Positions 7,189-55,485 of a DNA stretch of 64,000 nt are shown piece after piece. Numbering within the stretch: position 1 is the first letter of the stretch; each line of letters starts with the position of its first letter. The stretch lies in NCBI GenBank assembly GCA_041666945.1, contig JBAYFY010000001.1:182627-246626 (forward strand). The letters are read 5' to 3'. Origin of the DNA: Candidatus Buchananbacteria bacterium (GTDB lineage Bacteria > Patescibacteriota > Patescibacteriia > 2-01-FULL-39-33). The notes beneath the pieces were generated by a model. That model was not told where the DNA came from. It was given only the letters and a program-made list of their open reading frames with translations, and made no database searches. The position numbers and the translations under genes were made by a program.

Positions 7189-8340
7189 TTATTTCAAATA
7201 TGTCGCAAAGGTTTTTTCTACCATTTCGCTTAGGCCGAATTCTTTCTTTACCTTAGCCAGTCCCGCTTCGCCGAATTGTTTTCTTATCCGGTCGTCGGCT
7301 AAAAGCTTGATTTTTTCCGCTAACGATTCGGGAGAGCGCGGTTTGGCCAGATAGCCGGTAACGCCGTCGTCAATCATTTCCGGGATGCCGCCGACACGAG
7401 TCGTCACTATCGGCAAGCCGGCGGACATGGCTTCCAATATGAAATAGGGCAGGCCTTCTTTGACCGACGACATGACCGCCAAGTCCAGCGCCTTTAAATA
7501 TCTGGCGGCTTGCGGTTTGCCGCCGGCAAGAATAACGTCATCCTGTAATTCCAATTGTTTGATTTGCCGTTCCAATTCGCCTCTTAATTCTCCCTCGCCG
7601 ATGATTATCAGCTTATAGCTTAGGGCAGACGGCTTGCGGTTCAACAGCTTAATGGCATCAATCAGATAATTTAATCCTTTGGTGGCATAAAAATTAGCAA
7701 TCGTCCCAAGTATAAACTGTTGGCCGTTGATTATTGGCTGGCGGTTGAATAATTCGGCCGAAGCGATTTCTTTATCCCAAAAGTAATCTTCAGGAAAATC
7801 TACGCCATTATGGATAGTAATTAATTTATCGGGTTTGGCGATTTTTTTGTTTATGCCGATTTGCCGATCGTATTCGGAAACGCAGATAATGCGATGTTTG
7901 GTTCCGGCCGTCAGCCGTTCCAGCCAGAGGTACAACGACCGTTTAAGCGGATTCATTGGTTCATTGAAAACCCAGCCGTGAGCCGTGTAAATAAGCTTGC
8001 CCCGGATTGATCTGGGGCAAAACCAGAAGGCGAAAGTACCGACTACGCCCGCTTTGGAGCTGTTTAAATGGATTATGTCCGGTTTAATTTTTCGGTATAA
8101 TTTAGCCAATTCAAAAACAGCCAAAATATCGTTTAGGGGAGAGATGGCTCTTTTTAGGTGCTTTAGAGTCAAAAATTGGCTATTTTTAGCGTTAATTTGT
8201 TGACTAAGCCAATTACCGCTGTTTTCACCGACAGCCACGCTAACGTCCCAATTTTGGCCTGCAGCGGCCCTTGCTAAGGCGCTGATATAAAGTTGGGCGC
8301 CGCCGATTTCGCCCTGGGTTATGACATAAAGGATTTTCAT
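7189..8340 (-). CDS. glycosyltransferase family 4 (GT-B)
   Basis: N-terminal MKILYVITQGEIGGAQLY; EX7E-type motif EGLPYFILEAMSAGLPIVTTRVGGIPEMI. Confidence 0.85.
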   Translation of the reverse strand: MKILYVITQGEIGGAQLYISALARAAAGQNWDVSVAVGENSGNWLSQQINAKNSQFLTLKHLKRAISPLNDILAVFELAKLYRKIKPDIIHLNSSKAGVVGTFAFWFCPRSIRGKLIYTAHGWVFNEPMNPLKRSLYLWLERLTAGTKHRIICVSEYDRQIGINKKIAKPDKLITIHNGVDFPEDYFWDKEIASAELFNRQPIINGQQFILGTIANFYATKGLNYLIDAIKLLNRKPSALSYKLIIIGEGELRGELERQIKQLELQDDVILAGGKPQAARYLKALDLAVMSSVKEGLPYFILEAMSAGLPIVTTRVGGIPEMIDDGVTGYLAKPRSPESLAEKIKLLADDRIRKQFGEAGLAKVKKEFGLSEMVEKTFATYLK

Positions 8341-8359
8341 AATTTAAAACAAATGAAGC

Positions 8360-8389
8360 TTGAAATTTATAATCATTTTCTGCTATAAT
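8360..8389 (+). promoter_or_regulatory. strong sigma70-like promoter heading the long + strand gene array
   Basis: TTGAAA (8360-8365), then an 18-nt spacer, then TATAAT (8384-8389). Confidence 0.5.
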
Positions 8390-8423
8390 ATTAAGGTATT
8401 ATTTGACAATTTACAAGACCGCC

Positions 8424-9266
8424 ATGAATAAATTAATCGGTTTTATCGGCCAGGGCTGGATCGGCAAAAATTATGCCGACGATTTTGAAGTTAGGGGCTA
8501 TCAGGTAATCAGATATTCTTTGGAAGAACCGTATCTCGCCAACAAAGAAAAAATCAGCGAGTGTGATATCGTGTTCATTGCCGTGCCTACCCCGACTACC
8601 CGGACGGGGTTTGATGATTCCATTGTCAGAGGCGCCGTGAAGCTGGTCGGCCAAGGCAAGATCGCGGTAATCAAGTCCACGATTCTGCCCGGCACGACAG
8701 AGTCAATCCAAGCGGAAAATCCAAATATTTATTTGTTCCATTCGCCGGAATTTTTGTCTGTTTCCACCGCTTATGACGATTCGCGCCATCCGCAGAGGAA
8801 TATCGTCGGCCTGCCCATAGACAATGAAACATACAAAACCAAAGCCCGAGAGGTGATGTCGGTGTTGCCCCAGGCGGATTTTTCTCTTATTACTTCGGCC
8901 AAAGAAGCGGAATTATTCAAGTATTTGCGGAACTGCTTTTTTTATACCAAAGTCGTTTACATGAACATGCTTTATGATTTGGCCAAGAAGTTAGGTTGCC
9001 GGTGGGAAGTGCTAAGGGAAATCATGTCCAATGATCCCTGGATTGGCAACATGCATATTGATCCGGTGCATAAAAGCGGCCGGGGCGCCGGCGGAGAATG
9101 CTTTATCAAGGATTTAGCCGCACTTAGGCGTTTCTACAAACAGAATTTGAACGATGAAACGGCGGATTGGGTTTTTTCCGCTTTGGAGAAAAAGAATATT
9201 GAGTTGTTGTTAAAAAGCCAGAAAGATTTGGATTTGCTTAAAGGCGTTTATGGCGAGGATATTTAA
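8424..9266 (+). CDS. UDP-glucose/GDP-mannose dehydrogenase family protein, short form lacking the C-terminal UDP-binding domain
   Basis: N-terminal Rossmann motif IGFIGQGWIGKNYA. Catalytic-Cys motif GAGGECFIKD (UGDH GGxCxxKD). The ORF track starts at a TTG at 8403; the ATG at 8424 (MNKLIGF) is more plausible. Only about 280 aa, versus about 390-450 aa for typical UGDH. Confidence 0.6.
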   Translation: MNKLIGFIGQGWIGKNYADDFEVRGYQVIRYSLEEPYLANKEKISECDIVFIAVPTPTTRTGFDDSIVRGAVKLVGQGKIAVIKSTILPGTTESIQAENPNIYLFHSPEFLSVSTAYDDSRHPQRNIVGLPIDNETYKTKAREVMSVLPQADFSLITSAKEAELFKYLRNCFFYTKVVYMNMLYDLAKKLGCRWEVLREIMSNDPWIGNMHIDPVHKSGRGAGGECFIKDLAALRRFYKQNLNDETADWVFSALEKKNIELLLKSQKDLDLLKGVYGEDI

Positions 9267-10547: not shown

Positions 10548-11685
10548 CACAAAAATTTTAATCGCCACCGGCATTTATCCGCCGGATATCGGCGGCCCGG
10601 CCACGATGCTTGAAGCGCTGGCCTCGTCTTTGCGCGCCGAGGGTTTTGGCGTCAAGGTCATCACTTACTCCGGCCAAAAACGTTCAGAGCAAGACGTTTA
10701 TCGGGTGTTGAAAAACAGAATTTTCAGCCGCTTGCATTATTTTCTGGCTATGTTTTTTTTGTCTTTTGACGCCGATCTGATTTATGTAACCGATATTTAC
10801 AGCGTCGGCTGGTTTGCCAATCTGATAAAAAAGTTGACCGGCAAAAAATATTTGGTCAGGTTTGCCGGCGATGCCGCCTGGGAAACAGCCACTTCTAACG
10901 GTTGGACGACCGACTACATCACGGATTTTGAAAAAAATAATTATAATCAACGGATTGAAAAAATGAAAGCGCGCCGCCGCCGGATTTTAACGGAAGCTGA
11001 TGCGGTTATCGCCGTCAGTAATTTTATGGGCGACTTGGCCAAGCTGATCGGCGTTGATTCGGCAAAAATAAATGTCATATACAATGCGATTGATTTTAGC
11101 GATGAAACCGGCGTTAACGAGTCGGTTGCCGCCGATCTGCCCAAGGGCGGCCAAATTATCATGACGGTTTGCCGATTGACCAAATGGAAGGGCGTTGATC
11201 AGTTAATCAAGGCCATGCCGGAGATTATCAAGCGTTTGCCCCGGGTTTATTTGATTATTTTAGGCGACGGGCCGGAACTGGAAAGCTTGCAGGATTTAGC
11301 CCGGTCTTTGAATCTGGCCGATCAGGTAAAATTTCTTAACCGCATACCGCATGAAAACGTTTTGGAATATTTAAGCCGGGCCGACGTTTTCGTTTTAAAC
11401 ACCAATTATGAAGGTTTATCCCATACTTTACTGGAAGCCATAAAAGCCGGAACCCCGGTGATCGCCACCAATGTCGGCGGCAATCCTGAAGTTGTTACTG
11501 ACAACCAAAACGGACTGTTGGTAGATTATAACGATCAAAGCCGGTTAACCGAAGCGATTTGCCAATTATTGACTGACAGGCCGTTAGCCAAAAGATTGGC
11601 TGAAGCGGCGACGATTAAGTTAAAGGATTTTTCTTGGCGGCAAACAGTGGATAAAACTGTTGATTTATTGAAAAAATTGCGATGA
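10534..11685 (+). CDS. glycosyltransferase family 4
   Basis: EGLSHTLLEAIKAGTPVIATNVGGNPEVV. Overlaps the upstream gene by 14 nt. Confidence 0.85.
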   Translation: MDKNNTKILIATGIYPPDIGGPATMLEALASSLRAEGFGVKVITYSGQKRSEQDVYRVLKNRIFSRLHYFLAMFFLSFDADLIYVTDIYSVGWFANLIKKLTGKKYLVRFAGDAAWETATSNGWTTDYITDFEKNNYNQRIEKMKARRRRILTEADAVIAVSNFMGDLAKLIGVDSAKINVIYNAIDFSDETGVNESVAADLPKGGQIIMTVCRLTKWKGVDQLIKAMPEIIKRLPRVYLIILGDGPELESLQDLARSLNLADQVKFLNRIPHENVLEYLSRADVFVLNTNYEGLSHTLLEAIKAGTPVIATNVGGNPEVVTDNQNGLLVDYNDQSRLTEAICQLLTDRPLAKRLAEAATIKLKDFSWRQTVDKTVDLLKKLR

Positions 11686-13127
11686 AAAAAGTTTTATTGG
11701 TTAATCCCGAATTCAATATTGTCAAAGATAATTACGACAGCTCTATTTCTGTCGGTCTGTTGAGTATCGCGACGTATTTAAACAGCCAAGGAGTGGAAGT
11801 GAAAATAATAGACGGCGTCAGGCAAAAGGATTATCTGGCTTTATTGGAGCGAGCGATTAAGGAATTTGACCTTGTAGGCATTTCGGTCATGACCATGCAG
11901 ATTTCCAATGCTTTGAAGGTTTCCGAGTTGATAAGAAAGCTTAATCCCGCCGCGACGATTGTCTGGGGCGGCTCGCATCCGACTTTTTTTATTGAGCAGA
12001 CGGCCAAAAATCCCTTGATTGACGCGGTGTGTTTTGGCGAAGGGGAGGAAACCATGTTGCGATTGGCGCAGGGCCTGCCGTACGCTGAAGTTAAAGGCCT
12101 TGCCTATCGCGATTCCGGCGCGGTCGTCATTAATCAGCCGCAACCCCTGCATCGGCCGCAGTCCATGCCGCTGTTCAATTGGGATTTGGTGCCTCCGGAA
12201 ATCAGAGATCACTTGTATTTGATTCCCTCGCTGACTTCGCGCGGCTGTCCGCATCGCTGCACCTTTTGCATTAACGCGATTTTAAAAAATCAATGGCGCG
12301 CCCGAACCGTGGAACAAGTGCTTGAGGATTTGCGGATAATCAAAACCAAAGAATACTTCAAAGATAAAAAACTGCGTTTTTGGGACGAGAATTTTTTTGT
12401 GGATATCGGTCGCGCTAAAGCGATTATTGCCGGAATGATCAGGGAGAATCTGGTGTTGCCATGGGAAACCACCGTTCGCGCCGACTATATCAGGCCGGGC
12501 AAAATAGATGACGAATTTTTGGCCGAACTTAAGCGGTCCGGCTGTTATTTGCTGTCTTTTGGAGCTGAATCCGGCAGTAGCCACGTTTTAAAAATGATAA
12601 AAAAGGATGTTACGGCCGATGACATAGTCGCTTCCGCCGCCGCTTGCCTCAAACACGGCATCATACCCCAGTATTCATTTATGATCGGTTTGCCCGGCGA
12701 AACGCGAAGCGACATGCAGGATACCCTGAAACTGATTGACCGCTTGGTTGCTTTAAGCGACGAAGTCCAGATTTTGGGCCCGCAGGCCTTCCGCCCCTAT
12801 CCCGGATCGGAATTGTACGAGGAATGCGTTAAGGCCGGCTGGCAAGAACCGCAATCGCTGGAGGACTGGAAAAAAGTTTCGGAAAATGAATTGAGTTATA
12901 TGTCAGTCAAGAATTTCCCTTGGGTCAAAAACAAAGATTTTGTGGAATCAATGGAGGCCTATGTCAGGTTCGGCGCCCTGCCGTTTAAAAGCGCGATGAA
13001 TTCAACTATTTCTTCCAACAGATTGCTGAAATTTTGTTTCATTTGTTTATGCAAGTTGCGCTGGAAATTAAAGTTTTTTGCCTGGCCGTTGGAATTTAAA
13101 TTAGCCAAAAGATTTGTCACTAAATAA
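11682..13127 (+). CDS. B12-binding domain radical SAM protein (class B)
   Basis: N-terminal cobalamin-binding Rossmann region (LVGISVMT...VWGGSHPT, GEGEET) and radical SAM cluster SRGCPHRCTFC. ATGA overlap with the upstream gene. Confidence 0.85.
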   Translation: MKKVLLVNPEFNIVKDNYDSSISVGLLSIATYLNSQGVEVKIIDGVRQKDYLALLERAIKEFDLVGISVMTMQISNALKVSELIRKLNPAATIVWGGSHPTFFIEQTAKNPLIDAVCFGEGEETMLRLAQGLPYAEVKGLAYRDSGAVVINQPQPLHRPQSMPLFNWDLVPPEIRDHLYLIPSLTSRGCPHRCTFCINAILKNQWRARTVEQVLEDLRIIKTKEYFKDKKLRFWDENFFVDIGRAKAIIAGMIRENLVLPWETTVRADYIRPGKIDDEFLAELKRSGCYLLSFGAESGSSHVLKMIKKDVTADDIVASAAACLKHGIIPQYSFMIGLPGETRSDMQDTLKLIDRLVALSDEVQILGPQAFRPYPGSELYEECVKAGWQEPQSLEDWKKVSENELSYMSVKNFPWVKNKDFVESMEAYVRFGALPFKSAMNSTISSNRLLKFCFICLCKLRWKLKFFAWPLEFKLAKRFVTK

Positions 13128-13135: not shown

Positions 13136-15334
13136 ATGAAAATATTAAATTTAGGCACGGATAAAGGCGTTTTTGTCCCGTCAGCGCCTGTGGCGCGGCG
13201 CTTGGTTGAGTATGGCGCCATGACCGACGGCTACGACATCATCGTGCCCGACAAACAGCCGAAAAAAAATAAATTGTCAGAAAAAGTAACCGCTTACGGC
13301 ACGGGCGGCAACAACAGATTGTCGGCTCTGCTCAAGACGTACCGGTTGGCGAAAAAATTATTCCGTCAAAACAATTACGACGTGATAACGGTTCAGGATC
13401 CTTTTGAATTGTCGCTGATAGGATTGTTGTTGGCCAAAAAATTCAATTGCGCCCTAAACATCCAAGAGCACGGCGATTTTTTCAGCACGACTCATTGGCG
13501 CAATGAGAATCCGATTAATTTTTGCCGTTACTATCTGGGACGCTGGCTGATCAAGCGGGCCGACAGCGTGCGCGCAGTCAGCGAGCGGATAAAAGATACG
13601 TTGATTAAGGATTTGCAGATAGCCGAAGATAAAATCGTGGTCGTCTCAGTTTACGTAAAAACAGACCGGCCGGCCGGGGGAAACAAGCCGGAAATCTTTG
13701 ACTGTTTGACCGGCAAGACCGTTTTTTTAACGATGGCGCGGCTGGTGAAGCAGAAAAATTTGCCGTTACTGGTTCGGTCTTTCGCTCTTGTCGTCAAACA
13801 GTCGCCGGACGCGGCCTTGCTTATTGTCGGCCGCGGTCCGGAAAAGGATAAATTGGCCAAACAAATAAAAGAATCGGGTCTGGAAGATAAAATTTTTCTG
13901 GTTGACTGGACCGACAGTATTTATGATTATTACAATTCGGCCGATGTTTATGTTTTAAGTTCCAATTACGAGGGCTGGGGGATGGTTGCAATAGAAGCCG
14001 CCAGTTGCGGCCTGCCCATAGTGATGACTGATGTCGGTTGCGCCGGCGAAGCGGTCAAGGACGGAGAGAGCGCTTTAGTCGTGCCTCTGGACGATGAGAA
14101 AAAATTGGCCGACGCCATGAAAAAACTTATCCAGGACGCTGATTTGCGCCGACGGCTTGGCCAATCGGCTAAGTTGGCGATTAACGCCCTGCCTACCCGC
14201 GAAGGGAATTTGGCGCTTTATTTAAAAAGCTGGCAAATCGCCAAAGACAAGAAAGGTCCGCAAACCTGCAAACATTTTTGGCCGGTTTTGGTACTCTTGG
14301 CGGTTGTGGCGTTAAATGTTTTCATGCGGCTTGATTTCGTCGGTTTTAGCGTCAATGGCGATGCCTATCAGTATATGGAAACGGCTAAATTGTTTATGAA
14401 CCAGCCGGCGGAAAGTTTTCCTTCCAGAATCTTGAAACCGTTGGGGCCGTTGGGCATTGCCTGGTTATCACCCTTAACCGGGGGCGATTTATCGGCGGCA
14501 TTTGAGGCGGAAGCGATTATATTTTATATTTTTTTGGCCTTGGCCGTTTATGCGCTGTTTAATTTGTTTTTTAAGGATAAGTGGCTGGCTTTGACAGGCG
14601 CATTGATTTATATTTCTTCCTATCCGTTGCTTAAATACGGCTTGGATTTATTCACTGAGTCGGGCGCGCAATTATTCTGGGTTCTGGCCGCCATCGGCGT
14701 TGTCAGGTTTTATAAGCGGCCGAATAATTTTAATTTATTTTTGACTTCGCTGATGGTTGTCGTCGGCATGCTGTGGAAAGAATACAGCAGCTTGGGCATG
14801 GTTTTCCTGTATTTGGTGATATTTTTCCATCCGCTGCTGCCCGCGGGCGAGAAATTTAAAAAAATATTTTTATCCACCGTTGCGGTCGGTTTGCCCCTGA
14901 TTGCCTGGCAGGTCGTGGTTTATTTCAATTATCATTATTCGTATTTGGACTGGTATAAGTTAGGTATCAGCGCTCCCAGCGGTTCGGAGTATCAGCCGTT
15001 TTTCGTCGTTAAGAGTATTGTCGGCGTTTATTTGGCCGCTTGGTTATTGGTGCCGCTGGGACTGATCAACTGGCGGGAGTTCACCGTTGATCAAAAATTC
15101 CTGATCAAGTGCATGATTTTGCCGTCTTTTATGTTTTTGCTTTGGACCGGCGTATCATCGCGTCTGTATTTTGTCCTGGCTTTGCTTTTAACTTTGCTGG
15201 CAATCAACGGATTAAAAAAATATTTTCACCGCTGCCCAAGCCGAGCCGCGGTCGTTGCCGTTATTATTTTGATTGATTATTTATGGTTGCTGACCAGCGA
15301 CGGGTTCAGGGAATTTTTCAGCAGATTTCTTTAA
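13136..15334 (+). CDS. fusion: N-terminal GT4 glycosyltransferase + C-terminal roughly 350-aa polytopic membrane domain
   Basis: GT4 motif EGWGMVAIEAASCGLPIVMTDVGCAGEAV in residues 1 to about 370. About 10 predicted TM helices from about residue 380 to the end. Confidence 0.7.
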   Translation: MKILNLGTDKGVFVPSAPVARRLVEYGAMTDGYDIIVPDKQPKKNKLSEKVTAYGTGGNNRLSALLKTYRLAKKLFRQNNYDVITVQDPFELSLIGLLLAKKFNCALNIQEHGDFFSTTHWRNENPINFCRYYLGRWLIKRADSVRAVSERIKDTLIKDLQIAEDKIVVVSVYVKTDRPAGGNKPEIFDCLTGKTVFLTMARLVKQKNLPLLVRSFALVVKQSPDAALLIVGRGPEKDKLAKQIKESGLEDKIFLVDWTDSIYDYYNSADVYVLSSNYEGWGMVAIEAASCGLPIVMTDVGCAGEAVKDGESALVVPLDDEKKLADAMKKLIQDADLRRRLGQSAKLAINALPTREGNLALYLKSWQIAKDKKGPQTCKHFWPVLVLLAVVALNVFMRLDFVGFSVNGDAYQYMETAKLFMNQPAESFPSRILKPLGPLGIAWLSPLTGGDLSAAFEAEAIIFYIFLALAVYALFNLFFKDKWLALTGALIYISSYPLLKYGLDLFTESGAQLFWVLAAIGVVRFYKRPNNFNLFLTSLMVVVGMLWKEYSSLGMVFLYLVIFFHPLLPAGEKFKKIFLSTVAVGLPLIAWQVVVYFNYHYSYLDWYKLGISAPSGSEYQPFFVVKSIVGVYLAAWLLVPLGLINWREFTVDQKFLIKCMILPSFMFLLWTGVSSRLYFVLALLLTLLAINGLKKYFHRCPSRAAVVAVIILIDYLWLLTSDGFREFFSRFL

Positions 15335-24916: not shown

Positions 24917-24920
24917 TGTT

Positions 24921-46947: not shown

Positions 46948-46951
46948 AATT

Positions 46952-47953
46952 TTAGGGCAGATATTTCCTTAATTTGGGCCCGATTAAGGCAGTGATATTC
47001 AAGGGCAATAAGCGGTAGATTTTTGACGCATAACGCAAACAGGATTTTTGAGGCGTTTTAATTGTTTTTTGATCGGATGAGATAAGATAATAGGGCAGAG
47101 TGATGTTGCGGCAATTCCATTGGCTTTTGAATTTGGCCACGGGGGAGCCAATTTGCGATCGGCCGAGATCTATCTTTTTGATTTCCGGCCGGCAAGATTC
47201 CGCCATTATTCGCCAATATAAGTAATCGTTAAAATTAAAAGATTTTAGCTTGCGGTCAGAAGCGGCCCAGGGTATATGCAACGTGTTTTTATAAACAAAG
47301 GTTAAAGCGGCGGCGGCTATCTTATCGTTGTATTTAACGGCGCAGATAGCGCCGTCAAATTGTTTCAATATATCCGCAAAAAAACCGATTTTATGCGCCG
47401 GCGTGCCGTGTCGTTTCATTGATTTAAGATAAAGCAGATAGAAATCCGGCAGTAATTCCTTTTGTTTTAAATATTCCGGGTTGTACTTTTCCGCCTTGCG
47501 CACTTGGTTCCTGGCTTTTTTATCAATCCTTTTCCATAAATCATCCGCCGTAACTCCCAAATCTATCAATGAACATATGTTATCAATGTTCGGCGATGCT
47601 TGGCCCAGGCCCGTTTCTCTTGACTGGCGTAATTCGTACTTTTCTCCCTGATTCAGGGATCGGTTGATTAAATAATCATTAAATTCCTTTTTAGCCGATT
47701 CAGCGCCGACAAATCCCGCCCAATCGGTAAAGGGTAGCGAGATGAAATTTTTTTTGCCGGTTTTAAATAATGGCAAAATTCCGGTGATTGAATCCCGGTT
47801 ATCAATATTAATCAAATAATGATCTGCCAGGCCGTAATTGTCCCGGATAATTTTTCGCATTCCAATACTATGGGAGAAATTTGCTTGCTCCTGGGCGGTT
47901 AAGAAATCTTCCCAAGCTTGTTCCCGGTCTTTTGTTAATTCTTTAATGGCCAT
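46952..47953 (-). CDS. FemAB-like / GNAT-fold acyltransferase family protein (EPS-locus associated)
   Basis: Overall resemblance to FemAB-related proteins that pair with a CE4 deacetylase in EPS loci. Weak motif support only. Confidence 0.45.
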   Translation of the reverse strand: MAIKELTKDREQAWEDFLTAQEQANFSHSIGMRKIIRDNYGLADHYLINIDNRDSITGILPLFKTGKKNFISLPFTDWAGFVGAESAKKEFNDYLINRSLNQGEKYELRQSRETGLGQASPNIDNICSLIDLGVTADDLWKRIDKKARNQVRKAEKYNPEYLKQKELLPDFYLLYLKSMKRHGTPAHKIGFFADILKQFDGAICAVKYNDKIAAAALTFVYKNTLHIPWAASDRKLKSFNFNDYLYWRIMAESCRPEIKKIDLGRSQIGSPVAKFKSQWNCRNITLPYYLISSDQKTIKTPQKSCLRYASKIYRLLPLNITALIGPKLRKYLP

Positions 47954-48785
47954 GGCGCATTCTATATTGTTCTATGCTTTCAATGGAAAAATCGTCCAGC
48001 AATCGATTAAATTTATCCCAACCCCTTTTAACGCCGAAATACTTAAGGGTTTTTCGCCAACGGGGGATTTTTATATCCGGTATTGATTCGTCCAAATCCA
48101 TCAGATGGAAATAAAGCACAATCAATTCGTTTTTTGCGGCCTTTCTTTTCAGAAGATAGGAGAAAATCCTATAGGGCAACAAACGGAAATAAAAACCGCC
48201 CGATATCGGCCAGTTTATTCCGGCCTGGCGGAAGGTGGAAACAGGGTATTCCAGAAACGGTCCGGCAGTCAGCGGCGGATAGGGTTTAGTCGGCAGCGGT
48301 TTTGTCGGATCAGAAGAAAAGGCGAAATAACTTGAATCATAGATGAAATCGTTTTTTTCTAAAATTTCCCAGGCCCATTTGTTATCCTGATTGATTGAAA
48401 AATTAGGCGCTCTGAATCCCTTAGGTTCTTCACCGATCACGCGCAAAAATATCTCTTTTGATTTGTTAAGATCATTCTCAAATTCAGCGGGGCTTAAGCG
48501 ATTAATCGGCGTATGATTGAGGCCATGCAAGCCGATTTCGTGGCCGACGGCCTTAATCGCCTTCAGTAAATCGGGGAAGCGATCCATCAGCTCGGCTAAG
48601 ACAAAGAAAGTCGCGTTGGCACCGGCAGAATCGCCCAGCCGGGATAAAATTTTTTCCAAAAGAACCGTATTGAGCGGCGGGGTGTCAGCTTGATTTCCGG
48701 ACAGGTATTTTTCCAGGAATTTGCTTGAGTGCCAGTACTCCAAATCGAAAGAAAGGATAATTTTAGGTTTATTGACATCAGTCAT
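47943..48785 (-). CDS. polysaccharide deacetylase family protein (CE4-like)
   Basis: ILSFDLEYWHS N-terminus; HGLNH. Confidence 0.65.
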   Translation of the reverse strand: MTDVNKPKIILSFDLEYWHSSKFLEKYLSGNQADTPPLNTVLLEKILSRLGDSAGANATFFVLAELMDRFPDLLKAIKAVGHEIGLHGLNHTPINRLSPAEFENDLNKSKEIFLRVIGEEPKGFRAPNFSINQDNKWAWEILEKNDFIYDSSYFAFSSDPTKPLPTKPYPPLTAGPFLEYPVSTFRQAGINWPISGGFYFRLLPYRIFSYLLKRKAAKNELIVLYFHLMDLDESIPDIKIPRWRKTLKYFGVKRGWDKFNRLLDDFSIESIEQYRMRHGH

Positions 48786-49473
48786 GCGGATTGTTTAATG
48801 ATGATTTTTCAAATAAGACGTTCGCGTCCAAACCCAAAAGAGAGCTTAAGTTGGTTTGATCCAGATAACGCATAACCGGAAAAGCCCACAATGGCGTTTT
48901 ATTGGGCGGAATCATGGCATCAATGAAAGTTTTTGCCGGCCGCAAGCCGGCCGCTTCGCCCAGGCCCTTAAGATAGGTTAATGAAAAGTCCAGTCCGCCT
49001 AATTCTTCCCGATTTAACAGGGAGAATGCCATTACAGCTGGATTCTTGCCGTTCGGTTCGCATAAAAACACATGCTTTTTTGCCACCCTGGTCATTTCTT
49101 TTACGGCCTTAGTCCTATCTTCTTTATTCATGTGATGAAGCAACGCGCTGCAGGTGACCAGATCAAAAGAATCATCCGGAAACGGTATTTCAGTTACCGA
49201 GGCGACCATTTTTCGCGGATTGGGATTATTGTCAATCATTTCTTTTGAGTAATCAATTCCCAGACAGTCCACCCCAAAGACATTGGTTAGAGCTTTTTGA
49301 AAAAAACCATTGCCGCAGCCGCAGTCAATAATACTGCCGATATTATCCGGCAGCAGATTTTTTAATTTTTTTGCTTTGTCTTGGAAAATGTAACTTACAA
49401 TCGGATGTTCTGGAGAACGGCGGGAAGATTTGTTTTGATTCCAGAATTTTTCTTGCAGATCTTCAGTTGGCAT
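48778..49473 (-). CDS. class I SAM-dependent methyltransferase
   Basis: IIDCGCGNGFF; LLHHMNKED. Confidence 0.75.
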   Translation of the reverse strand: MPTEDLQEKFWNQNKSSRRSPEHPIVSYIFQDKAKKLKNLLPDNIGSIIDCGCGNGFFQKALTNVFGVDCLGIDYSKEMIDNNPNPRKMVASVTEIPFPDDSFDLVTCSALLHHMNKEDRTKAVKEMTRVAKKHVFLCEPNGKNPAVMAFSLLNREELGGLDFSLTYLKGLGEAAGLRPAKTFIDAMIPPNKTPLWAFPVMRYLDQTNLSSLLGLDANVLFEKSSLNNPHD

Positions 49474-49487
49474 AAAAATTTAATGTT

Positions 49488-50414
49488 TCATTGGCGATTA
49501 TTAATCTCTCTTCTTAGGGCGGAAATCTGATCGGCAATCAAGCCGAAAAAGAAAATCAGTATTGAAGATAACGATATTAATACCGTGCTGGCGCTGATTC
49601 TGCCTTGATTAAGAATATCAAAGATCAATAAACTTCCGCCCAAGAGGAACAATAGCAAGCCAATGGGCAAAAATATTCTTAAGGGCGAGAAAAGCATGAT
49701 TAAACGCAGAATTAAAAATAAGTAAGTTATAAATTCCCTCGGTTTAACCATGCTTTGCCCGCTTTCTCTTTTGTTTATTTGAATGGGTATGAATTTAACA
49801 TTCAGGCCTTCACGCAAAAAGGCGAACAGGGTGGTGGTTGAGCAAGAAAAGCCATTAGGCAAAATATGAGTGAATCTTAAGAATTCTTTCTTCTTTATCA
49901 ACCTTAAACCGCAATTGAAATCGGCTATCTTTTTACCCAATAAATAAATGGCCAGCAAGTGGATTAATTTTTTACCCGGTTGGCGAATCCAGGGTCCTTG
50001 ATAGCCCATTCGTTCGCCCGATATCAAATCGAAATTTTCCGTATAAACCAGCATTCTTTTGATGTCTTCGGCCTGATGCTGGCCGTCAGCGTCAAAAAAC
50101 ACCAGCCAGTCATATTGAGCGTTCTTGGCCCCGGTTTTTAAACTGGCGCCATAGCCCTTATTGTAAGGATGATTAATCGTCTTTATCCTGTCATCTTGCT
50201 TTAATATTTCTCCGCTCTGATCCGTTGAACCGTCGTTAACGACAATAATTTCGTGGATTATTTGATTTCCAATCAATTCTTTGGTTAAGGAATCAATAAC
50301 CTTGGGCAGGGCTTCGCCGTCGTTAAAATTAGGAATGATTATTGATAATGCCGGAAATGTATTCATAATTATCGCTATTATTTGGTCTCTATTGGCCTCG
50401 GCCGCCCAGAACAA
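49488..50414 (-). CDS. GT2 polyprenyl-phosphate sugar synthase with C-terminal TM helices (GtrB/ArnC-like)
   Basis: SIIIPNFND, VVNDGSTDQS, DADGQHQ. Two C-terminal TMs. Confidence 0.85.
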   Translation of the reverse strand: MFWAAEANRDQIIAIIMNTFPALSIIIPNFNDGEALPKVIDSLTKELIGNQIIHEIIVVNDGSTDQSGEILKQDDRIKTINHPYNKGYGASLKTGAKNAQYDWLVFFDADGQHQAEDIKRMLVYTENFDLISGERMGYQGPWIRQPGKKLIHLLAIYLLGKKIADFNCGLRLIKKKEFLRFTHILPNGFSCSTTTLFAFLREGLNVKFIPIQINKRESGQSMVKPREFITYLFLILRLIMLFSPLRIFLPIGLLLFLLGGSLLIFDILNQGRISASTVLISLSSILIFFFGLIADQISALRREINNRQ

Positions 50415-51738
50415 CCCTGATGGTTTTTAGGGCAATGCTTAAATCAAGAAGCGGGGAACGATTTTTGACGTAATATAAGTCGTATTTGATTTTTTCCACC
50501 GTTTCTTCTTTAGAACCGCCGTAAGACGGGCCCATCAATTGCGCCCAGCCGGTTAATCCCGGTTTAACCAAGAGCCGCTCGCTGTAAAAGGGGATTTCTT
50601 GGGACAAGGATTGGATAAATTCCGGCCGCTCCGGCCTGGGACCGATTAATGACATTTCACCGCGCAGAACATTAAGCAATTGGGGAACCTCGTCCAATCG
50701 GGTTTTTCTCATTATCCGGCCGAAGCGGGTAACGCGGGCATCGTTTTTGGTCGCCCATTGAGCGCCATTTTTTTCCGCGTCCCGAACCATTGAGCGGAAT
50801 TTTTTGGCCAGAAATTCCTTGCCATTCTTGCCCACTCTGATTTGCCGAAAAATTATCGGGCCGGGGCTTTCCAATTTAATGATTAAAGCGATAAGAGGCA
50901 CAAGCGGCGCCGTCACCATCAAGCCGATGACGGCTAAAATGATATCTATTAGTCGCTTTAACAGCTCGTATGATTTTTTGGAATTTTCAGTTAAGTTCTC
51001 CAAAAACCAACCCAGCTCAATTGACTCTATCGGCACTTTCTGGGTGATGGTTTCATAAAAATCAGTCAGCCGGTGCACATCAATGCCCAGCGACAGGCAA
51101 TCAAATATTTTTTTGGCCGTGGCGGCGTCGGTATGCAAGCTATTGTCGGTGATAACAATGTCAATATTATTGTCCAGGCAATATTTTTTCAGATCTTCCG
51201 GCGCCCGTTCAAGCAATGTAGCCACGTAACCTAATTGCGGCCGGCGGACTATTTCTTTCATTAGATTTTCGGCTAAACTGTTTTGCCCGATGATTAAGAT
51301 ATAGTTAGCTATTTGCGGCGATTTGATTAAGCCGTAAAAAATTCTGCGCCAAGAAAAAATGAAAATAAAGGTAATGATCAAATCAATGATTAAAACTTTC
51401 TGCGGCTTGATGGCGGGGAAAAAAGGAGCCAGAAAATAAAAAGCGAACACCGCGATAATGCCGTTGATTATCGTGGCCCTGAATAAGACGGAAAACAGAG
51501 AGAAATTATTGTAACTGGTTTTTAGATCGTAAAAATCGCAGATGTAAAAAACCAACAGCCATAAGGCAAAAATAAAAGTCAGAGCCCGGTAATGAATCTG
51601 CCAAGAATTGGCATCAAAACCCGAGCCGTAGCGAATCCAAAGAGTCAGCCAAAGCGCCAGATAAAGGCAGGCAATATCGCCTAAAATTAGAAGTAATTTT
51701 TTGGTTTTTAGGATAAGGCCGGTCATAATTCCAGTCAA
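50389..51738 (-). CDS. polyprenyl-phosphate hexose-1-phosphate transferase (WbaP/sugar transferase family), priming enzyme
   Basis: Five N-terminal TMs. C-terminal bacterial sugar transferase domain PGPIIFRQIRVGKNGKEF...DEVPQLLNVLRGEMSLIGPRP. Confidence 0.85.
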   Translation of the reverse strand: MTGIMTGLILKTKKLLLILGDIACLYLALWLTLWIRYGSGFDANSWQIHYRALTFIFALWLLVFYICDFYDLKTSYNNFSLFSVLFRATIINGIIAVFAFYFLAPFFPAIKPQKVLIIDLIITFIFIFSWRRIFYGLIKSPQIANYILIIGQNSLAENLMKEIVRRPQLGYVATLLERAPEDLKKYCLDNNIDIVITDNSLHTDAATAKKIFDCLSLGIDVHRLTDFYETITQKVPIESIELGWFLENLTENSKKSYELLKRLIDIILAVIGLMVTAPLVPLIALIIKLESPGPIIFRQIRVGKNGKEFLAKKFRSMVRDAEKNGAQWATKNDARVTRFGRIMRKTRLDEVPQLLNVLRGEMSLIGPRPERPEFIQSLSQEIPFYSERLLVKPGLTGWAQLMGPSYGGSKEETVEKIKYDLYYVKNRSPLLDLSIALKTIRVVLGGRGQ

Positions 51739-52265: not shown

Positions 52266-52338
52266 TTGTTCGGTAAGGGCAAATCATGTTATAATTTATG
52301 TATGAACTAAATATCCATTTAAGGAATAAATTAAATCT

Positions 52339-53379: not shown

Positions 53380-53383
53380 ACTT

Positions 53384-54046: not shown

Positions 54047-54100
54047 CAGGTAATAAGTAACAAGTAATTTTTAATAATTTATTACATATTACGTATTACT
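54043..54100. repeat. inverted heptamer-array element (GTAAYAN)x3 ... (NTRTTAC)x3, copy 1
   Basis: AAGTAACAGGTAATAAGTAACAAGTAA, then tttttaataat, then TTATTACATATTACGTATTAC; immediately after the GT2 stop codon. Confidence 0.6.
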
Positions 54101-54113
54101 ATTTATAAACAAT

Positions 54114-54449
54114 ATGCTTATACAAATCATCCTGCTTATTATTATCGCCGTTATTGTTTTACGCTTAGCGGTTAAATACCGCGCCAAGGAATTGCCCGGC
54201 AAGCAATTCATCAGTTGGCTTGTTTTTTGGCTGGCGGCTTCCGCGGCCGTGATTTGGCCCCAGTTGACAGTTAATATTGCCAATCGCGTGGGTGTGGGTC
54301 GCGGTTCTGACTTGGTAGTTTACTTGGCCTTGATATTTTTGTTTTATATCCTCTTCCGCTTGTTTTTGCGCATTGAGAAACTGGAGAAAAACTTGACTAA
54401 AGTCGCCCGGGCTGAAGCCCTAAAAGAAAAAAATGATTCAACCGAATAA
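54114..54449 (+). CDS. DUF2304-like small membrane protein
   Basis: 111 aa, three TMs plus a C-terminal amphipathic helix. Commonly paired with GT2 genes. Confidence 0.55.
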   Translation: MLIQIILLIIIAVIVLRLAVKYRAKELPGKQFISWLVFWLAASAAVIWPQLTVNIANRVGVGRGSDLVVYLALIFLFYILFRLFLRIEKLEKNLTKVARAEALKEKNDSTE

Positions 54450-55485
54450 AAAGATCGTCATTGGCATCGTAACTTATAATTCCCGCCATAAAATCGCCGA
54501 TTGCCTTAACAGCGTTAATCGGCAGAATTATCCGCGCGAATTGGTGCAGGTGGCGGTAGTTGATAACAACAGCAATGACTCAACTAAAGATTATTTGGCT
54601 GAAGCTTGGCCGCAAGTGACGGTTATTGCCAATAACAATAATACCGGTTTTGCCGCGGCCAATAATCAGATCTATGCCTTCGCCAAAGGCCAAGCCGATT
54701 ATCTGGTCCTGCTTAATGATGACACGATAGTAGAGCCCAATTGGCTGACACGACTGGTTAACGCCGCCTTAAGCGATGATAAAATTGCCGCCGTTCAGTC
54801 AAAATTATTGCTTTATCCGGAAAAGAATTTGGTCAATAGCTTGGGCAACTCCATCCAGTTTTTGGGTTTCGCTTTTTGCAATCACTATCGCGAGCCCGAT
54901 AATCATGATTACACCGCCTTGTTTGATTTGCCTTACGCTTCCGGCGCCGCCGTGTTGTTAAAACTTTCAGCGCTTGAAGAAATTGGTTTATTTGATGAAA
55001 AATTATTCATGTATCACGAAGACGTGGACTTGGGCTGGCGCTTGCGGCTTTTGGGTTACCGCGCGGTCATTGATCCGCTCTCCGTCGTTTATCACAAATA
55101 TAACTATTCCAAAGCCAAGTACAAGTTCTACTACATGGATCGCAATCGCTGGATCGTCCTGCTGAAGAACTACCGCTTAGCGACTATTATATTATTAGCG
55201 CCCATGCTATTGATAATGGAATTCGGCATTACGCTTTATTCTATTAAAAACGGCTGGTTTAAGGAAAAACTTAAGGGCTGGGCCTGGCTGATAAAAAATC
55301 TCGGCTATGTTTTGAGCGAACGGAAGAAAATTCAAGGCCTGCGGCAAACATCCGACCGTAAAATTTTGAATTTGTTTGTCGGTTCAATCACCAATCAGGA
55401 AGTGGAAAATAAATTATTGTCTTGGATAGCCAATCCTCTAATGGAGATTTATTTTCTTTTAATCCGCTTGGTTGTTTTTTGGTAA
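54433..55485 (+). CDS. glycosyltransferase family 2
   Basis: VIGIVTYNS, VAVVDNNSNDST, LNDD; C-terminal membrane-associated tail. Confidence 0.8.
   Translation: MIQPNKKIVIGIVTYNSRHKIADCLNSVNRQNYPRELVQVAVVDNNSNDSTKDYLAEAWPQVTVIANNNNTGFAAANNQIYAFAKGQADYLVLLNDDTIVEPNWLTRLVNAALSDDKIAAVQSKLLLYPEKNLVNSLGNSIQFLGFAFCNHYREPDNHDYTALFDLPYASGAAVLLKLSALEEIGLFDEKLFMYHEDVDLGWRLRLLGYRAVIDPLSVVYHKYNYSKAKYKFYYMDRNRWIVLLKNYRLATIILLAPMLLIMEFGITLYSIKNGWFKEKLKGWAWLIKNLGYVLSERKKIQGLRQTSDRKILNLFVGSITNQEVENKLLSWIANPLMEIYFLLIRLVVFW

Follow-up and report, generated by a model that had tools for sequence, protein, structure and literature searches.

The 64,000-nucleotide stretch analysed here (the window), from a Candidatus Buchananbacteria metagenome-derived tiny genome (Patescibacteria/CPR), harbours a ~51-kb, tRNA-flanked envelope-glycan island in which radical enzymes probably tailor polyprenyl-phosphate-linked sugars before their flipping and transfer. 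The lipid-carried sugars are most likely altered in ways undescribed for bacterial surface glycans, and no account of a comparable system turned up in a limited search of open-access papers and preprints. New here is a widespread orthogroup of B12-type radical SAM proteins, that of paralog 10 below, whose genes almost always lie immediately downstream of one for an ArnC/GtrB-like polyprenyl-phosphate sugar synthase.

Judging from its gene content, the locus is a lipid-linked envelope-glycan assembly island, in agreement with the first-pass annotation. Family profile searches identified 8 GT4, 6 GT2 and 1 GT9 glycosyltransferases, and the island also encodes a Bac_transf primer, a Wzx-type flippase, a Wzy_C protein, two polysaccharide deacetylases, FemAB-like, GtrA and DUF2304 proteins and an LPG_synthase_TM flippase-like protein. 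The four class I methyltransferases announced earlier were found, three free-standing and one fused to the C-terminus of the 20976-23135 product. There are three GT-C candidates: TM609, the PMT_2 domain of 27099-29663 and the C-terminal half of 13136-15334. The island had been delimited as 7189-55485; its right edge is indeed at 55485, but on the left it reaches ~4894 and includes the Wzy_C gene. Thirty co-directional genes form a plus-strand array (8403-45515) in which no intergenic gap exceeds 55 bp; the genes of the minus-strand operon (45529..51738) are packed just as tightly. The features are listed below; assignments are from domain searches unless otherwise indicated, and all ten numbered paralogs have PF02310 and PF04055 domains.

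249-3941, MacB-type ABC exporter and HlyD adaptor, near the island
4512..4584, minus, tRNA-Glu, left flank
4894..7134, plus, Wzy_C (O-antigen ligase/polymerase or PglL-like) polytopic membrane protein, 746 aa, ~14 hydrophobic segments (PF04932 68.1 bits, cutoff 31.7)
7189..8340, minus, GT4 (GT4a; PF00534 132 bits, PF13439)
8403..9266, plus, short UDP-glucose/GDP-mannose dehydrogenase-like ORF, 287 aa, without C-terminal domain (PF03721, PF00984); opens the 30-gene array
9321-10547 and 10534-11685, plus, GT4 pair (PF00534 131 and 161 bits)
11682..13127, plus, paralog 1, 481 aa (PF02310 76.5 bits, PF04055 79.4 bits)
13136..15334, plus, GT4 (PF00534 138.8 bits) with C-terminal polytopic, weakly PMT_2-like membrane domain (PF13231 E=0.0012, aa 450-589; 9 hydrophobic segments within aa 384-722)
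15338..16810, plus, paralog 2, module 1 (dN/dS 0.046)
16826-17521, plus, AglJ/ArnC-like GT2, 231 aa, module 1 (AglJ 113.7 bits, ArnC 65 bits)
17512-18114, plus, class I methyltransferase, module 1
18095-19180, plus, GT4
19170-19904, plus, polysaccharide deacetylase
about 19909-20973, plus, GT4
20976..23135, plus, paralog 3 with C-terminal class I (MetW-like) methyltransferase, 719 aa (PF07021/PF13489 aa 531-714)
23108..24250, plus, GT4
24260-24916, plus, class I methyltransferase, module 2
24921-25616, plus, AglJ/ArnC-like GT2, 231 aa, module 2 (family search)
25648..27111, plus, paralog 4, module 2
27099..29663, plus, fusion of N-terminal PMT_2 membrane domain, radical SAM (aa 524-681) and SPASM (aa 790-846), module 2 (9 hydrophobic segments in the fusion by crude hydropathy count)
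29677..31026, plus, paralog 5 (dN/dS 0.077)
31028..32443, plus, paralog 6 (dN/dS 0.039)
32446..33606, plus, GT9, heptosyltransferase family (PF01075 63.8 bits; heptosyltransferase I 65 bits, under its cutoff)
33662..35197, plus, paralog 7, 511 aa
35210-36544, plus, Wzx-type flippase (PF01943, PF13440)
36548-37777, plus, GT4 (PF00534)
37786..39234, plus, paralog 8, 482 aa (dN/dS 0.074)
39231-40187, plus, GT2
40191..41267, plus, stand-alone radical SAM/SPASM protein, both domains present
41288..43117, plus, TM609, 609-aa GT-C-fold membrane glycosyltransferase (AlphaFold2 model, pLDDT 85.6; NCBI entry WCT16_01035)
43117..44091, plus, LPG_synthase_TM/TIGR00374 flippase-like membrane protein (PF03706 113.8 bits)
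44088..45515, plus, paralog 9, 475 aa (dN/dS 0.042)
45529..46947, minus, paralog 10, last gene of the module 3 operon
46952-47953, minus, FemAB-like protein, module 3
47943-48785, minus, DUF3473 polysaccharide deacetylase, module 3
48778-49473, minus, class I methyltransferase, module 3
49488-50414, minus, ArnC/GtrB-like GT2, module 3 (family and structure matches)
50389-51738, minus, priming polyprenyl glycosylphosphotransferase, Bac_transf, module 3 (TIGR03025 374.6 bits, cutoff 295.55)
51837-52265, plus, GtrA-like protein
52339-53379, plus, NAD-dependent sugar epimerase/dehydratase
53384-54046, plus, PpgS-like GT2 (PpgS 157 bits)
54114-54449, plus, DUF2304
54433-55485, plus, GT2, right edge of the island
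56449..56647, plus, tRNA-Ala and tRNA-Val, right flank

The assignment of ten ORFs as class B-type radical SAM proteins with a Rossmann B12-type domain, made in the first-pass annotation, is supported by scores above the Pfam gathering cutoffs in all ten, both for PF02310 (B12-binding; 43.6-96.2 bits, cutoff 32.1) and for PF04055 (Radical_SAM; 59-105 bits, cutoff 29.5). As announced, each harbours a CxxxCxxC motif, exactly once and in the context (S/G)RGCP-x-x-C-x-(F/Y)C; in paralog 1 it reads CPHRCTFC, at residue 189. LPxPAxDLLP, attributed to most paralogs, is intact in only five and degenerate in a sixth. The SPASM radical SAM proteins are two, as described, but the claimed one-for-one interleaving with glycan genes is not strict: paralogs 5 and 6 are adjacent, and the ORFs at 44088 and 45529 abut. 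Pairwise identities among the ten (21-38% over 277-493 aligned residues, in line with the earlier estimate of about 25-40%) are lower than those of seven of them with relatives in other lineages (42-74%). The paralogs are thus old and do not stem from a recent tandem duplication, as already proposed.

Synteny in metagenomes, suggested earlier as a check, was found in two related genomes (Ga0265297_10000004 and Ga0172379_10001653), in which the island is colinear with equal ORF lengths. Together with dN/dS values of 0.04-0.08 for the nine testable B12-type paralogs, both SPASM proteins and the GT-C protein, this indicates that the island genes are functional. The closest related locus is on a 957,791-bp Patescibacteria contig. 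Paralog 1 has an ortholog at 86% identity in locus L088 (dN/dS 0.061), and the paralog 3-methyltransferase fusion is kept in L087-L091 (80-87% identity); the L056 ortholog of paralog 3 (61% identity) lacks the methyltransferase. In L056, the paralog 7 ortholog (65% identity) adjoins GT9 and Wzx genes, as in the window. A Terrybacteria locus (L097) has kept the block GT4-GT2-B12-PMT_2 at 46/61/74/43% identity, with PMT_2 and SPASM, fused in the window, as separate genes. In the paralog-4 orthogroup, the GT2-radical SAM-PMT_2 order of the window is found in Terrybacteria, and the order is GT2-methyltransferase-B12-methyltransferase-PMT in Elusimicrobia. The stand-alone SPASM protein has orthologs in CPR core loci (45-69% identity), Wzy_C homologues adjoin the priming transferase in many CPR loci, and paralog 9 orthologs (42-49% identity) adjoin those of paralog 10 in many loci. 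Uncharacterized related loci of CPR, Elusimicrobia and anammox bacteria regularly carry two to four B12-type radical SAM genes per ~21 kb, so that allowing known glycan loci at most one such enzyme was an overstatement; with its ten genes, the window stands at the far end of a recurrent pattern and is not an isolated case. Fusion proteins were also found elsewhere, including a paralog-10 ortholog fused to LPG_synthase_TM (P0096) and two B12-radical SAM proteins fused to three GT4 (P0282). Like the PMT_2-radical SAM/SPASM fusion of the window, they speak for a link to lipid-linked sugars, but the giant ones may be artefacts of stop-codon read-through in gene calling.

The paralog-10 orthogroup has 492 matches (50-58% identity) among GTDB species genomes of bacterial and archaeal phyla, labelled CPR, Chloroflexota, anammox Planctomycetota, Nitrospirota, and DPANN and methanogen archaea. 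In 52 of the 73 GTDB loci with upstream sequence present, the GT2 ortholog is found upstream on the same strand within 1.5 kb of the radical SAM gene; the gap is at most 60 bp in 38 of these 52, most commonly a 4-bp overlap. Eleven further loci have one within 3.5 kb (63/73 in total). A recognizable methyltransferase is nearby in only 30 of 70 paralog-10 loci, and a BLAST-detectable homologue of TM609 in only 21 of 80. The module 3 GT2, which has two C-terminal hydrophobic helices, aligns over its full length with the solved structures of ArnC (9hwj, E=1.8e-20), GtrB and DPMS, and its best family matches are ArnC, PpgS, AglJ and PgfS. GT-C-type partners occur near paralog-10 orthologs in three very distant lineages: TM609, the conserved partner in CPR loci, a PA14+PMT_2 protein in Brocadia pituitae and a YfhO-like protein in a Methanosarcinales genome. 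In Foldseek searches, the TM609 model matched STT3/AglB/PglB, ArnT, DPY19, Pmt4, ALG and Aft enzymes (E=4e-7 to 1e-2). Based on these comparisons, the minimal conserved unit pairs a putative polyprenyl-phosphate sugar synthase GT2 with a B12-type radical SAM protein encoded after it, often joined by a methyltransferase and a GT-C protein. It is reminiscent of an Arn/Gtr-type pathway into which a radical step has been built. The window has three copies of the cassette (modules 1-3), in addition to GT4-paired radical SAM genes; module 3 is transcribed in the order primer, GT2, methyltransferase, deacetylase, FemAB-like, paralog 10. Gene adjacency by itself would fit three kinds of substrate alike, namely lipid-linked sugars, nucleotide sugars and the lipid itself; lipid-linked sugars are indicated because the conserved unit contains a polyprenyl-phosphate sugar synthase.

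Going by the family assignments, the WbaP/WcaJ-type phosphoglycosyltransferase primes the polyprenyl-phosphate carrier, the eight GT4, the GT9 and several GT2 extend the chain on the cytoplasmic side, Wzx flips it and the Wzy_C protein polymerizes or ligates it. In a proposed parallel branch, the ArnC/GtrB/PpgS/AglJ-like GT2 would make polyprenyl-phosphate monosaccharides, which the GtrA and LPG_synthase_TM-like proteins would flip to serve as donors for the GT-C-fold enzymes outside the membrane. The ten soluble B12-type and two SPASM radical SAM enzymes are likely to act in the cytoplasm on lipid-linked sugars, each coupled to the transferase by which its substrate is put in place, and to modify unactivated carbons by radical chemistry. 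The class I methyltransferases would add O/N-methyl groups, the deacetylases free amines and the FemAB-like protein N-acyl/aminoacyl decorations. The least certain step is the radical reaction: cobalamin-dependent C-methylation is the likeliest single choice for most paralogs, with HpnJ/OxsB/Cds-like ring contraction or AprD4-like dehydration as a real alternative for some.

None of the ten paralogs reaches the cutoff of any characterized family among the NCBIfam equivalog profiles. The radical C-methylation put forward earlier is therefore not established: it is plausible, and HpnJ- or OxsB-like ring chemistry is equally possible. The first interpretation is supported as to the class B type, the glycan locus, the age of the paralogs and their non-RiPP nature; it had missed the CPR affiliation of the organism and the conserved GT2-radical SAM unit. 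The same locus and substrates with mainly non-methylating chemistry, i.e. rearrangement, contraction, dehydration or epimerization, is a serious though less probable reading; examples would be the HpnJ/Cds-like conversion of a deacetylated hexosamine to a carbocyclic pseudo-sugar, OxsB-like ring contraction or AprD4-like deoxygenation. The best partial matches are mostly to the non-methylating HpnJ, BchE, AprD4 and OxsB, HpnJ and BchE being the best for most paralogs, and separate class I methyltransferases are already present for methylation. Nevertheless, these matches are far under the family cutoffs (paralog 10 scores 257 bits to HpnJ, nearly full length, with a cutoff of 577.6), and the methylases PhpK, HpnR, MgmA, TsrM, TokK and CysS are matched too. 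The AlphaFold2 model of paralog 10 (pLDDT 91) superposes over its full length on AprD4, TsrM, OxsB, MgmA, CysS and TokK, AprD4 and OxsB being the best matches among solved structures and AprD4 the top one. As AprD4 has the same two-domain fold and is not known to use cobalamin, the fold is no proof of cobalamin dependence. Cobalamin synthesis is not expected in CPR genomes; the window contains no cobalamin riboswitch, and no cobalamin transporter was identified among its proteins scanned by domain profiles. Most characterized cobalamin-binding radical SAM enzymes are methylases, which argues for methylation, and the adjacent GT-C enzyme could no longer use a polyprenyl-phosphate-bound carbocycle as its glycosyl donor. 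Module 3 shares three enzyme classes with HpnI-HpnK-HpnJ (GT2, deacetylase and B12-type radical SAM protein), and the action of radical SAM enzymes on sugar head groups carried by lipids has been proposed for that system and for Cds (PMC13459092).

Many recently characterized radical SAM enzymes act on lipids (PMC13459092), and those of the island might instead target the polyprenyl carrier, or membrane lipids or glycolipids that the cell has scavenged. Methylation, cyclization or cross-linking, as by HpnP/HpnR and GDGT enzymes or in ladderane synthesis, would then yield an unusual glycolipid in a bacterium unable to build its own lipids. Consistent with this are partial matches to HpnJ, HpnR and the ladderane-associated TIGR04072, the P0096 fusion and the adjacent LPG_synthase_TM gene in the window. 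We consider it unlikely, given that the invariant partner is a glycosyltransferase rather than a lipid-synthesis gene, that domain searches of the island proteins detected no fatty-acid, isoprenoid or glycerolipid genes, and that ten divergent paralogs among 15 glycosyltransferases fit stepwise glycan tailoring better. That the genes instead make a natural product for secretion, an oligosaccharide or aminoglycoside-like compound exported by the neighbouring MacAB/HlyD pump (249-3941), is considerably less probable still. The sugar-acting class B-type enzymes GenK, GenD1 and AprD4, the last being the top structural match of paralog 10, originate from antibiotic clusters; however, the primer, Wzx, Wzy_C, GtrA, ArnC/PpgS-like GT2 and GT-C proteins are hallmarks of lipid-linked envelope glycan assembly, the island has no cyclitol synthase, aminotransferase or NRPS/PKS gene, and its core is kept across hundreds of species beside cell-wall genes such as murB. 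Lastly, that the radical SAM proteins are RiPP maturases placed by chance among glycosyltransferase genes is hardly credible. SPASM domains are common in peptide maturases and there are partial matches to ApyD and TIGR03975, but all RiPP-family scores are far under cutoffs. The adjacent precursors that would have pointed to RiPPs are excluded by the 55-bp maximal gap, which leaves no room for their genes, and in the 80 loci compared it is a GT2, not a small ORF, that is conserved as the partner.

The ten B12-type radical SAM genes, two SPASM radical SAM genes and the glycan-assembly genes around them form an island bracketed by tRNA genes.

Main features of the island (positions in the window)
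4512-4584, minus strand, tRNA-Glu, left bracket of the island
4894-7134, Wzy_C protein (PF04932, 68.1 bits), a candidate polymerase, ligase or O-oligosaccharyltransferase
11682, 15338, 20976, 25648, 29677, 31028, 33662, 37786 and 44088, plus strand, starts of B12-type radical SAM paralogs 1 to 9
45529-46947, minus strand, B12-type radical SAM paralog 10
27099-29663, SPASM radical SAM protein
40191-41267, SPASM radical SAM protein
15338-18114, GT2-radical SAM cassette, copy 1
24260-29663, GT2-radical SAM cassette, copy 2
45529-50414, GT2-radical SAM cassette, copy 3
56449-56520 and 56571-56647, plus strand, tRNA-Ala and tRNA-Val, right bracket of the island

All ten B12-type ORFs proposed in the first-pass annotation were recovered by mechanical ORF listing, and a Pfam scan placed each of them above the gathering cutoffs both for the radical SAM domain (PF04055, 59-105 bits; cutoff 29.5) and for an N-terminal, Rossmann-type B12-binding domain (PF02310, 43.6-96.2 bits; cutoff 32.1). 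Each has a single CxxxCxxC motif in the context (S/G)RGCPxxCx(F/Y)C. The motif LPxPAxDLLP, said to occur in most of them, is less general, as PxPAxDLLP is intact in five of the ten and degenerate in a sixth, i.e. present in about half. Pairwise BLASTP yielded identities of 21-38% between paralogs. The AF2 model of 45529-46947 (pLDDT 91), the one paralog of the ten that was modelled, aligns over its full length with TsrM, OxsB, MgmA, CysS and TokK. Its top structural match is AprD4, which has the same fold and to our knowledge does not use cobalamin. An Rfam scan of the window matched three tRNAs as the only RNA elements and no cobalamin riboswitch. Membership of characterised class B families is ruled out by the NCBIfam cutoffs: none of the ten paralogs reached those of HpnJ, BchE, PhpK, HpnR, MgmA, BzaD, TsrM, KedN5, ApyD, the ladderane family TIGR04072 or TIGR04295. 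The best score of any paralog, 257 bits, was obtained with HpnJ (cutoff 577.6), the top-scoring NCBIfam family for five of the ten.

Both SPASM proteins were likewise found. The first (27099-29663) is a single protein of 854 aa in which an N-terminal, GT-C-type PMT_2 membrane domain is fused to a radical SAM/SPASM module; PF13231 scores 30.7 bits in it (cutoff 26.1). The two halves are separate genes in a Terrybacteria locus, L097 (43% and 61% identity).

Family scans also bore out the view that the neighbouring genes serve glycan assembly. They code for eight GT4, six GT2 and one GT9 glycosyltransferases, two polysaccharide deacetylases (one with DUF3473), a FemAB-like protein and a sugar epimerase/dehydratase, along with the membrane or transport proteins Wzx (flippase; PF01943, 60.5 bits; PF13440, 54.6 bits), LPG_synthase_TM (flippase-like), GtrA and DUF2304. 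Three class I methyltransferases are free-standing, and the B12-type paralog 20976-23135 has an additional, MetW-like class I methyltransferase domain at its C-terminus. A WbaP/WcaJ-type priming transferase is recognized by PF02397 (227.6 bits) and TIGR03025 (374.6 bits; cutoff 295.55). The priming transferase, Wzx and a Wzy_C membrane protein that characterize a Wzx/Wzy-dependent lipid-linked glycan locus were thus all found. The genes are arranged in a plus-strand array of 30 co-directional genes separated by at most 55 bp (8403-45515), which converges on a six-gene minus-strand operon (51738-45529) with the priming transferase gene at its head. The first ORF of the array (8403-9266) has a TTG start and codes for a UDP-glucose/GDP-mannose dehydrogenase-like protein that is only 287 aa long and lacks the C-terminal UDP-binding domain; truncation of a longer gene or a divergent short variant could account for this.

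B12-type radical SAM genes were also counted in other loci.

Number of B12-type genes within 10 kb on either side of the radical SAM gene (80 surveyed loci)
1 gene per locus, 55 loci
2 genes per locus, 19 loci
3 genes per locus, 8 loci
4 genes per locus, 4 loci

The statement that known glycan loci hold none or one such enzyme was therefore too strong, since two to four B12-type genes are found in many of the surveyed loci. L097 harbours two B12-type and four SPASM radical SAM genes, and another locus, L098, three B12-type genes and one other radical SAM gene. With ten B12-type and two SPASM genes in operonic arrangement, the island of the window is the densest among the loci surveyed.

The 609-aa protein of the window (41288-43117) is NCBI entry WCT16_01035, from a Candidatus Buchananbacteria MAG. 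The radical SAM genes have their nearest relatives under the labels Patescibacteria, Buchananbacteria, Portnoybacteria, Kuenenbacteria, Terrybacteria and Falkowbacteria, and the host is a CPR bacterium. A 957,791-bp contig of a Patescibacteria MAG carries the locus closest in synteny; judged from this close relative, the host genome measures about 1 Mb, of which the island takes up about 5%. The locus is colinear in Ga0265297_10000004 (tiled by L002 and L088) and in Ga0172379_10001653 (L087), with ORFs of the same or nearly the same lengths as in the window and 74-93% amino-acid identity. Between the window and Ga0265297_10000004, Nei-Gojobori dN/dS values were 0.04-0.08 for nine B12-type paralogs (all but paralog 7, which falls in a 2.3-kb stretch outside the sequence compared), both SPASM proteins and the GT-C protein; these values are approximate, as dS is close to saturation. 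It is very probable that the locus is an island for an envelope glycan and that its class B-type radical SAM enzymes are functional.

In L091, a more distant relative, most blocks are retained, but the pair formed by a GT2 gene and paralog 4 is missing and other genes are swapped. The related Patescibacteria genome L009 (JBAZRV010000002.1) has right-flank genes with 85-92% identity to those of the window, but its island interior differs in gene content and reaches only 33-69% identity. Because of these differences, we regard the island as a variable, surface-antigen-like locus made of exchangeable blocks, which suggests a hypervariable surface-glycan island. That it is flanked by tRNA genes and varies in gene content among close relatives also suggests host recognition or phage as a source of diversifying pressure on the surface glycan, and a dependence of glycan synthesis on scavenged B12. 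The block 51837-55485, coding for a GtrA-like protein, an epimerase, a PpgS-like GT2 of 220 aa, DUF2304 and another GT2, is 85-92% identical in relatives even when the island interior differs. The block resembles the arrangement of the mycobacterial PpgS/Rv3632 polyprenyl-phosphate GalNAc synthase.

Analyses of the orthologs of paralog 10 revealed how widespread its association with GT2 genes is. More than 5,500 database proteins match this orthogroup at E≤1e-20, and 492 matches were confirmed in GTDB species-representative genomes, at 50-58% identity. Bacterial labels comprise CPR, Anaerolineae/Chloroflexota, Brocadia and other Planctomycetota, Nitrospirota, Omnitrophota, KSB1, Eisenbacteria and Thermodesulfobacteriota, and archaeal ones Woese-, Iain- and Nanohaloarchaeota and Methanosarcinales, some of these MAG labels being perhaps unreliable. 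A related paralog has 14,208 cluster representatives at E≤1e-30. Of the 80 loci surveyed, 73 extend upstream beyond the radical SAM gene. An ortholog of the GT2 gene 49488-50414 was found on the same strand within 1.5 kb upstream in 52 of the 73, and within 3.5 kb in a further 11. The gap between the two genes is at most 60 bp in 38 of these 52 loci, and the commonest arrangement is a 4-bp overlap. A class I methyltransferase gene follows in 30 of 70 loci.

The GT2 protein 49488-50414 has two C-terminal hydrophobic helices and can be aligned over its full length with solved structures of ArnC (residues 22-291 with residues 9-282 of 9hwj; E=1.8e-20); it also aligns with GtrB and DPMS. Its top family matches, ArnC, PpgS, AglJ and PgfS, are polyprenyl- or dolichyl-phosphate monosaccharide synthases, a match at the family level only since its scores lie far under the equivalog cutoffs of ArnC, PpgS and AglJ. 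In CPR, in Brocadia pituitae and in a Methanosarcinales genome, three lineages very far from one another, a GT-C-type membrane enzyme is encoded near the cassette. In CPR this is the 609-aa protein 41288-43117, which has no sequence match in the PDB; its GT-C fold is visible only in the predicted structure (AF2 pLDDT 85.6), for which Foldseek returned STT3/AglB/PglB, ArnT, DPY19, Pmt4, ALG and Aft. In the complete genome of Candidatus Brocadia pituitae (AP021856.1; L063), the minimal cassette adjoins genes for a GT2-methyltransferase fusion and a PA14+PMT_2 protein, and in a Methanosarcinales MAG (L030) those for a YfhO-like protein and a UDP-GlcNAc 2-epimerase. Genes for large membrane proteins number 1.30 per 10 kb near the cassette versus 0.50 per 10 kb farther off; this lends the cassette model support of an unspecific kind, as the counts include Wzx and Wzy proteins.

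Paralog 4 represents a second widespread orthogroup, with 66-74% identity in other CPR classes, ~52% in Elusimicrobia and 51% in Woesearchaeota. The gene order is GT2 (231 aa)-radical SAM-PMT_2 in Terrybacteria, and GT2-methyltransferase-B12-methyltransferase-PMT-B12-B12-GT9-radical SAM-PMT_2-methyltransferase in an Elusimicrobia genome. Paralogs outside the three cassettes of the window adjoin GT4 or GT9 genes.

The cassettes have features in common with several known systems. As in the Arn (ArnC-ArnD-ArnE/F-ArnT) and Gtr/CsbB-YfhO/PpgS-Rv3779 pathways, a GT2 (49488-50414 in the window) would charge polyprenyl phosphate with one sugar. The synthase with its C-terminal helices and a nearby GT-C-fold transferase are both present at the family or fold level, as are small or flippase-like membrane proteins (GtrA, LPG_synthase_TM). 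The polysaccharide-deacetylase-family enzyme 47943-48785 would be the ArnD analogue, acting at the lipid-linked stage, and the window also has a PpgS-like GT2 with DUF2304. However, those pathways have no radical SAM enzyme, whereas in the window and in other phyla a B12-type gene follows the GT2 gene, often with a 4-bp overlap. A parallel for such a combination is provided by the hopanoid side-chain pathway HpnI (GT2)-HpnK (deacetylase)-HpnJ (B12-type radical SAM) and by the archaeal calditol synthase Cds: a glycosyltransferase forms the hexosamine or hexose head group on a lipid, and after deacetylation a radical SAM enzyme transforms it (PMC13459092). The minus-strand operon has the same GT2-deacetylase-radical SAM composition, its GT2-deacetylase part being also that of ArnC-ArnD. 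Nevertheless, the window proteins score at most 257 bits against the HpnJ cutoff of 577.6, and the GT2 resembles polyprenyl-phosphate sugar synthases rather than HpnI. Moreover, the island has a Wzx/Wzy/GT-C context without hopanoid genes, in organisms not known as hopanoid makers.

The paralogs also share a Rossmann domain, a radical SAM barrel and potential action at unactivated sugar carbons with GenK, GenD1, AprD4 and OxsB; AprD4 and OxsB, the two compared directly, are among the best structural matches (TM-score 0.74-0.76, ~20% identity). These four enzymes come from the secondary metabolism of actinomycetes (aminoglycoside and nucleoside antibiotic pathways), with soluble pseudo-oligosaccharides or nucleotides as substrates and one or two enzymes per cluster, in contrast with ten per locus in the lipid-linked envelope-glycan context of a CPR bacterium. 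TIGR04295 (B12_rSAM_oligo) is an uncharacterised B12-type family, reported by NCBIfam curators from a glycosyltransferase-rich cassette with one radical SAM enzyme each; no experimental characterisation of it is known. It would set a precedent for a glycan locus with a single enzyme of this type; paralog 5 matches it partially (135.8 bits, below the cutoff of 400). Lastly, PEP-CTERM-associated families are the best matches of three proteins, namely the FemAB-like one, the DUF3473 deacetylase and the priming transferase, which is of EpsB_2 type. An XrtA/PEP-CTERM exopolysaccharide system was rejected, as scores stay below the cutoffs (TIGR03019, 164.7 vs 260.35; TIGR03006, 176.9 vs 276.2; TIGR03013, 363.3 vs 393.35), and no match to any exosortase family was found among the window ORFs scanned.

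Judged by families and folds, the island codes for two kinds of assembly route. The Wzx/Wzy-type route consists of the priming transferase, cytoplasmic GT4, GT9 and GT2 enzymes, Wzx and the Wzy_C protein; Arn/Gtr-type routes consist of a polyprenyl-phosphate sugar synthase, flippase-like proteins and a GT-C transferase. The soluble radical SAM enzymes would act at the cytoplasmic face, on the lipid-linked products of the neighbouring transferases. On balance, we favour the view that they tailor lipid-linked sugars, because the GT2-radical SAM pairing is near-invariant and often translationally coupled across domains of life, and because PMT_2 and SPASM domains are fused in the window and separate in Terrybacteria. 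Possibly artefactual fusions in the database proteins P0096 and P0282 argue in the same direction, and HpnI-HpnK-HpnJ and Cds give precedent (PMC13459092). P0096 (798 aa, from a 3.6-kb Logan contig) is a putative fusion of the 45529-46947 ortholog with a C-terminal LPG_synthase_TM domain, and in locus L004 the corresponding genes are neighbours that overlap by 1 bp. P0282 joins a pair of B12-type radical SAM modules to DUF362, a ferredoxin domain, three GT4 domains and TPR repeats; both fusions may be gene-calling artefacts. More generally, P0269, P0270, P0272 and P0282 are giant predicted proteins of 2,000-2,600 aa with 3-6 tandem radical SAM/B12 modules, which could be real assembly-line fusions or artefacts of gene calling by stop-codon read-through.

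Regarding the chemistry, C-methylation is the single most likely reaction for most paralogs, with somewhat less than an even chance of being the main one. It is favoured because most characterised cobalamin-binding radical SAM enzymes are methylases and because a methylated sugar can still act as a glycosyl donor. A serious competing possibility is ring contraction or dehydration. The partial matches to family models and structures are mixed, comprising the non-methylating HpnJ, BchE, AprD4 and OxsB as well as the methylases PhpK, HpnR, MgmA, TsrM, TokK and CysS. The initial interpretation is thus supported in part, firmly for the glycan locus and the class B-type enzymes, with C-methylation as a plausible candidate reaction. 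We also considered that the enzymes might be RiPP maturases. This was rejected, as the intergenic gaps of the 30-gene array (≤55 bp) are too short for a precursor gene, no conserved small ORF was seen and the conserved neighbour across the 80 loci is a GT2 gene.

The tailored glycan could be attached to an S-layer protein or pilin, to the cell wall or to a glycolipid. Protein glycosylation is a live option, because the Wzy_C domain is common to PglL-type O-oligosaccharyltransferases and the best fold matches of the 609-aa protein are oligosaccharyltransferases.

We found no description of such radical SAM glycan loci in open-access papers and preprints, which is a weak negative. The lipid-linked glycan locus and the class B-type radical SAM enzymes are of known kinds; what is new is the hypothesis, well supported and open to test, that polyprenyl-phosphate sugars undergo radical tailoring. 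In its broadest form, to which we give just short of an even chance, class B-type enzymes of a widespread, uncharacterised pathway would rewrite polyprenyl-phosphate-linked sugars, by C-methylation or carbocycle-forming rearrangement, before flipping and GT-C transfer to the cell surface. This pathway would operate in CPR, DPANN, methanogenic archaea, anammox Planctomycetota, Chloroflexota, Nitrospirota and Elusimicrobia, with the Buchananbacteria island, with its ten B12-type and two SPASM enzymes, as its most elaborate known form. Envelope-glycan biosynthesis would then gain a new reaction class, the radical, probably cobalamin-dependent tailoring of lipid-linked sugars, and one or more large unannotated radical SAM orthogroups their first functional context. 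The surface glycan would carry many radical-installed modifications, and the outer surface of an ultra-small symbiont would depend on cobalamin from its host or community. That a CPR episymbiont with a ~1-Mb genome nevertheless spends ~5% of it on the island adds to the significance of the locus. For experiments, anammox enrichment cultures with the minimal GT2-radical SAM cassette could be a tractable point of entry. The S-layer O-glycan of Kuenenia contains a methylated HexNAc whose methyl position is unassigned (PMC5088730), which the cassette, seen in Brocadia genomes, might account for.

For three successive ORFs beyond the right bracket (57836-60422; 254, 205 and 311 aa), Pfam gave no match at E≤0.001. 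Directly left of the island (249-3941 and 3982-4455) are genes for an HlyD-type adaptor, a MacB-type ABC ATPase and permease, and a DUF5666 protein.
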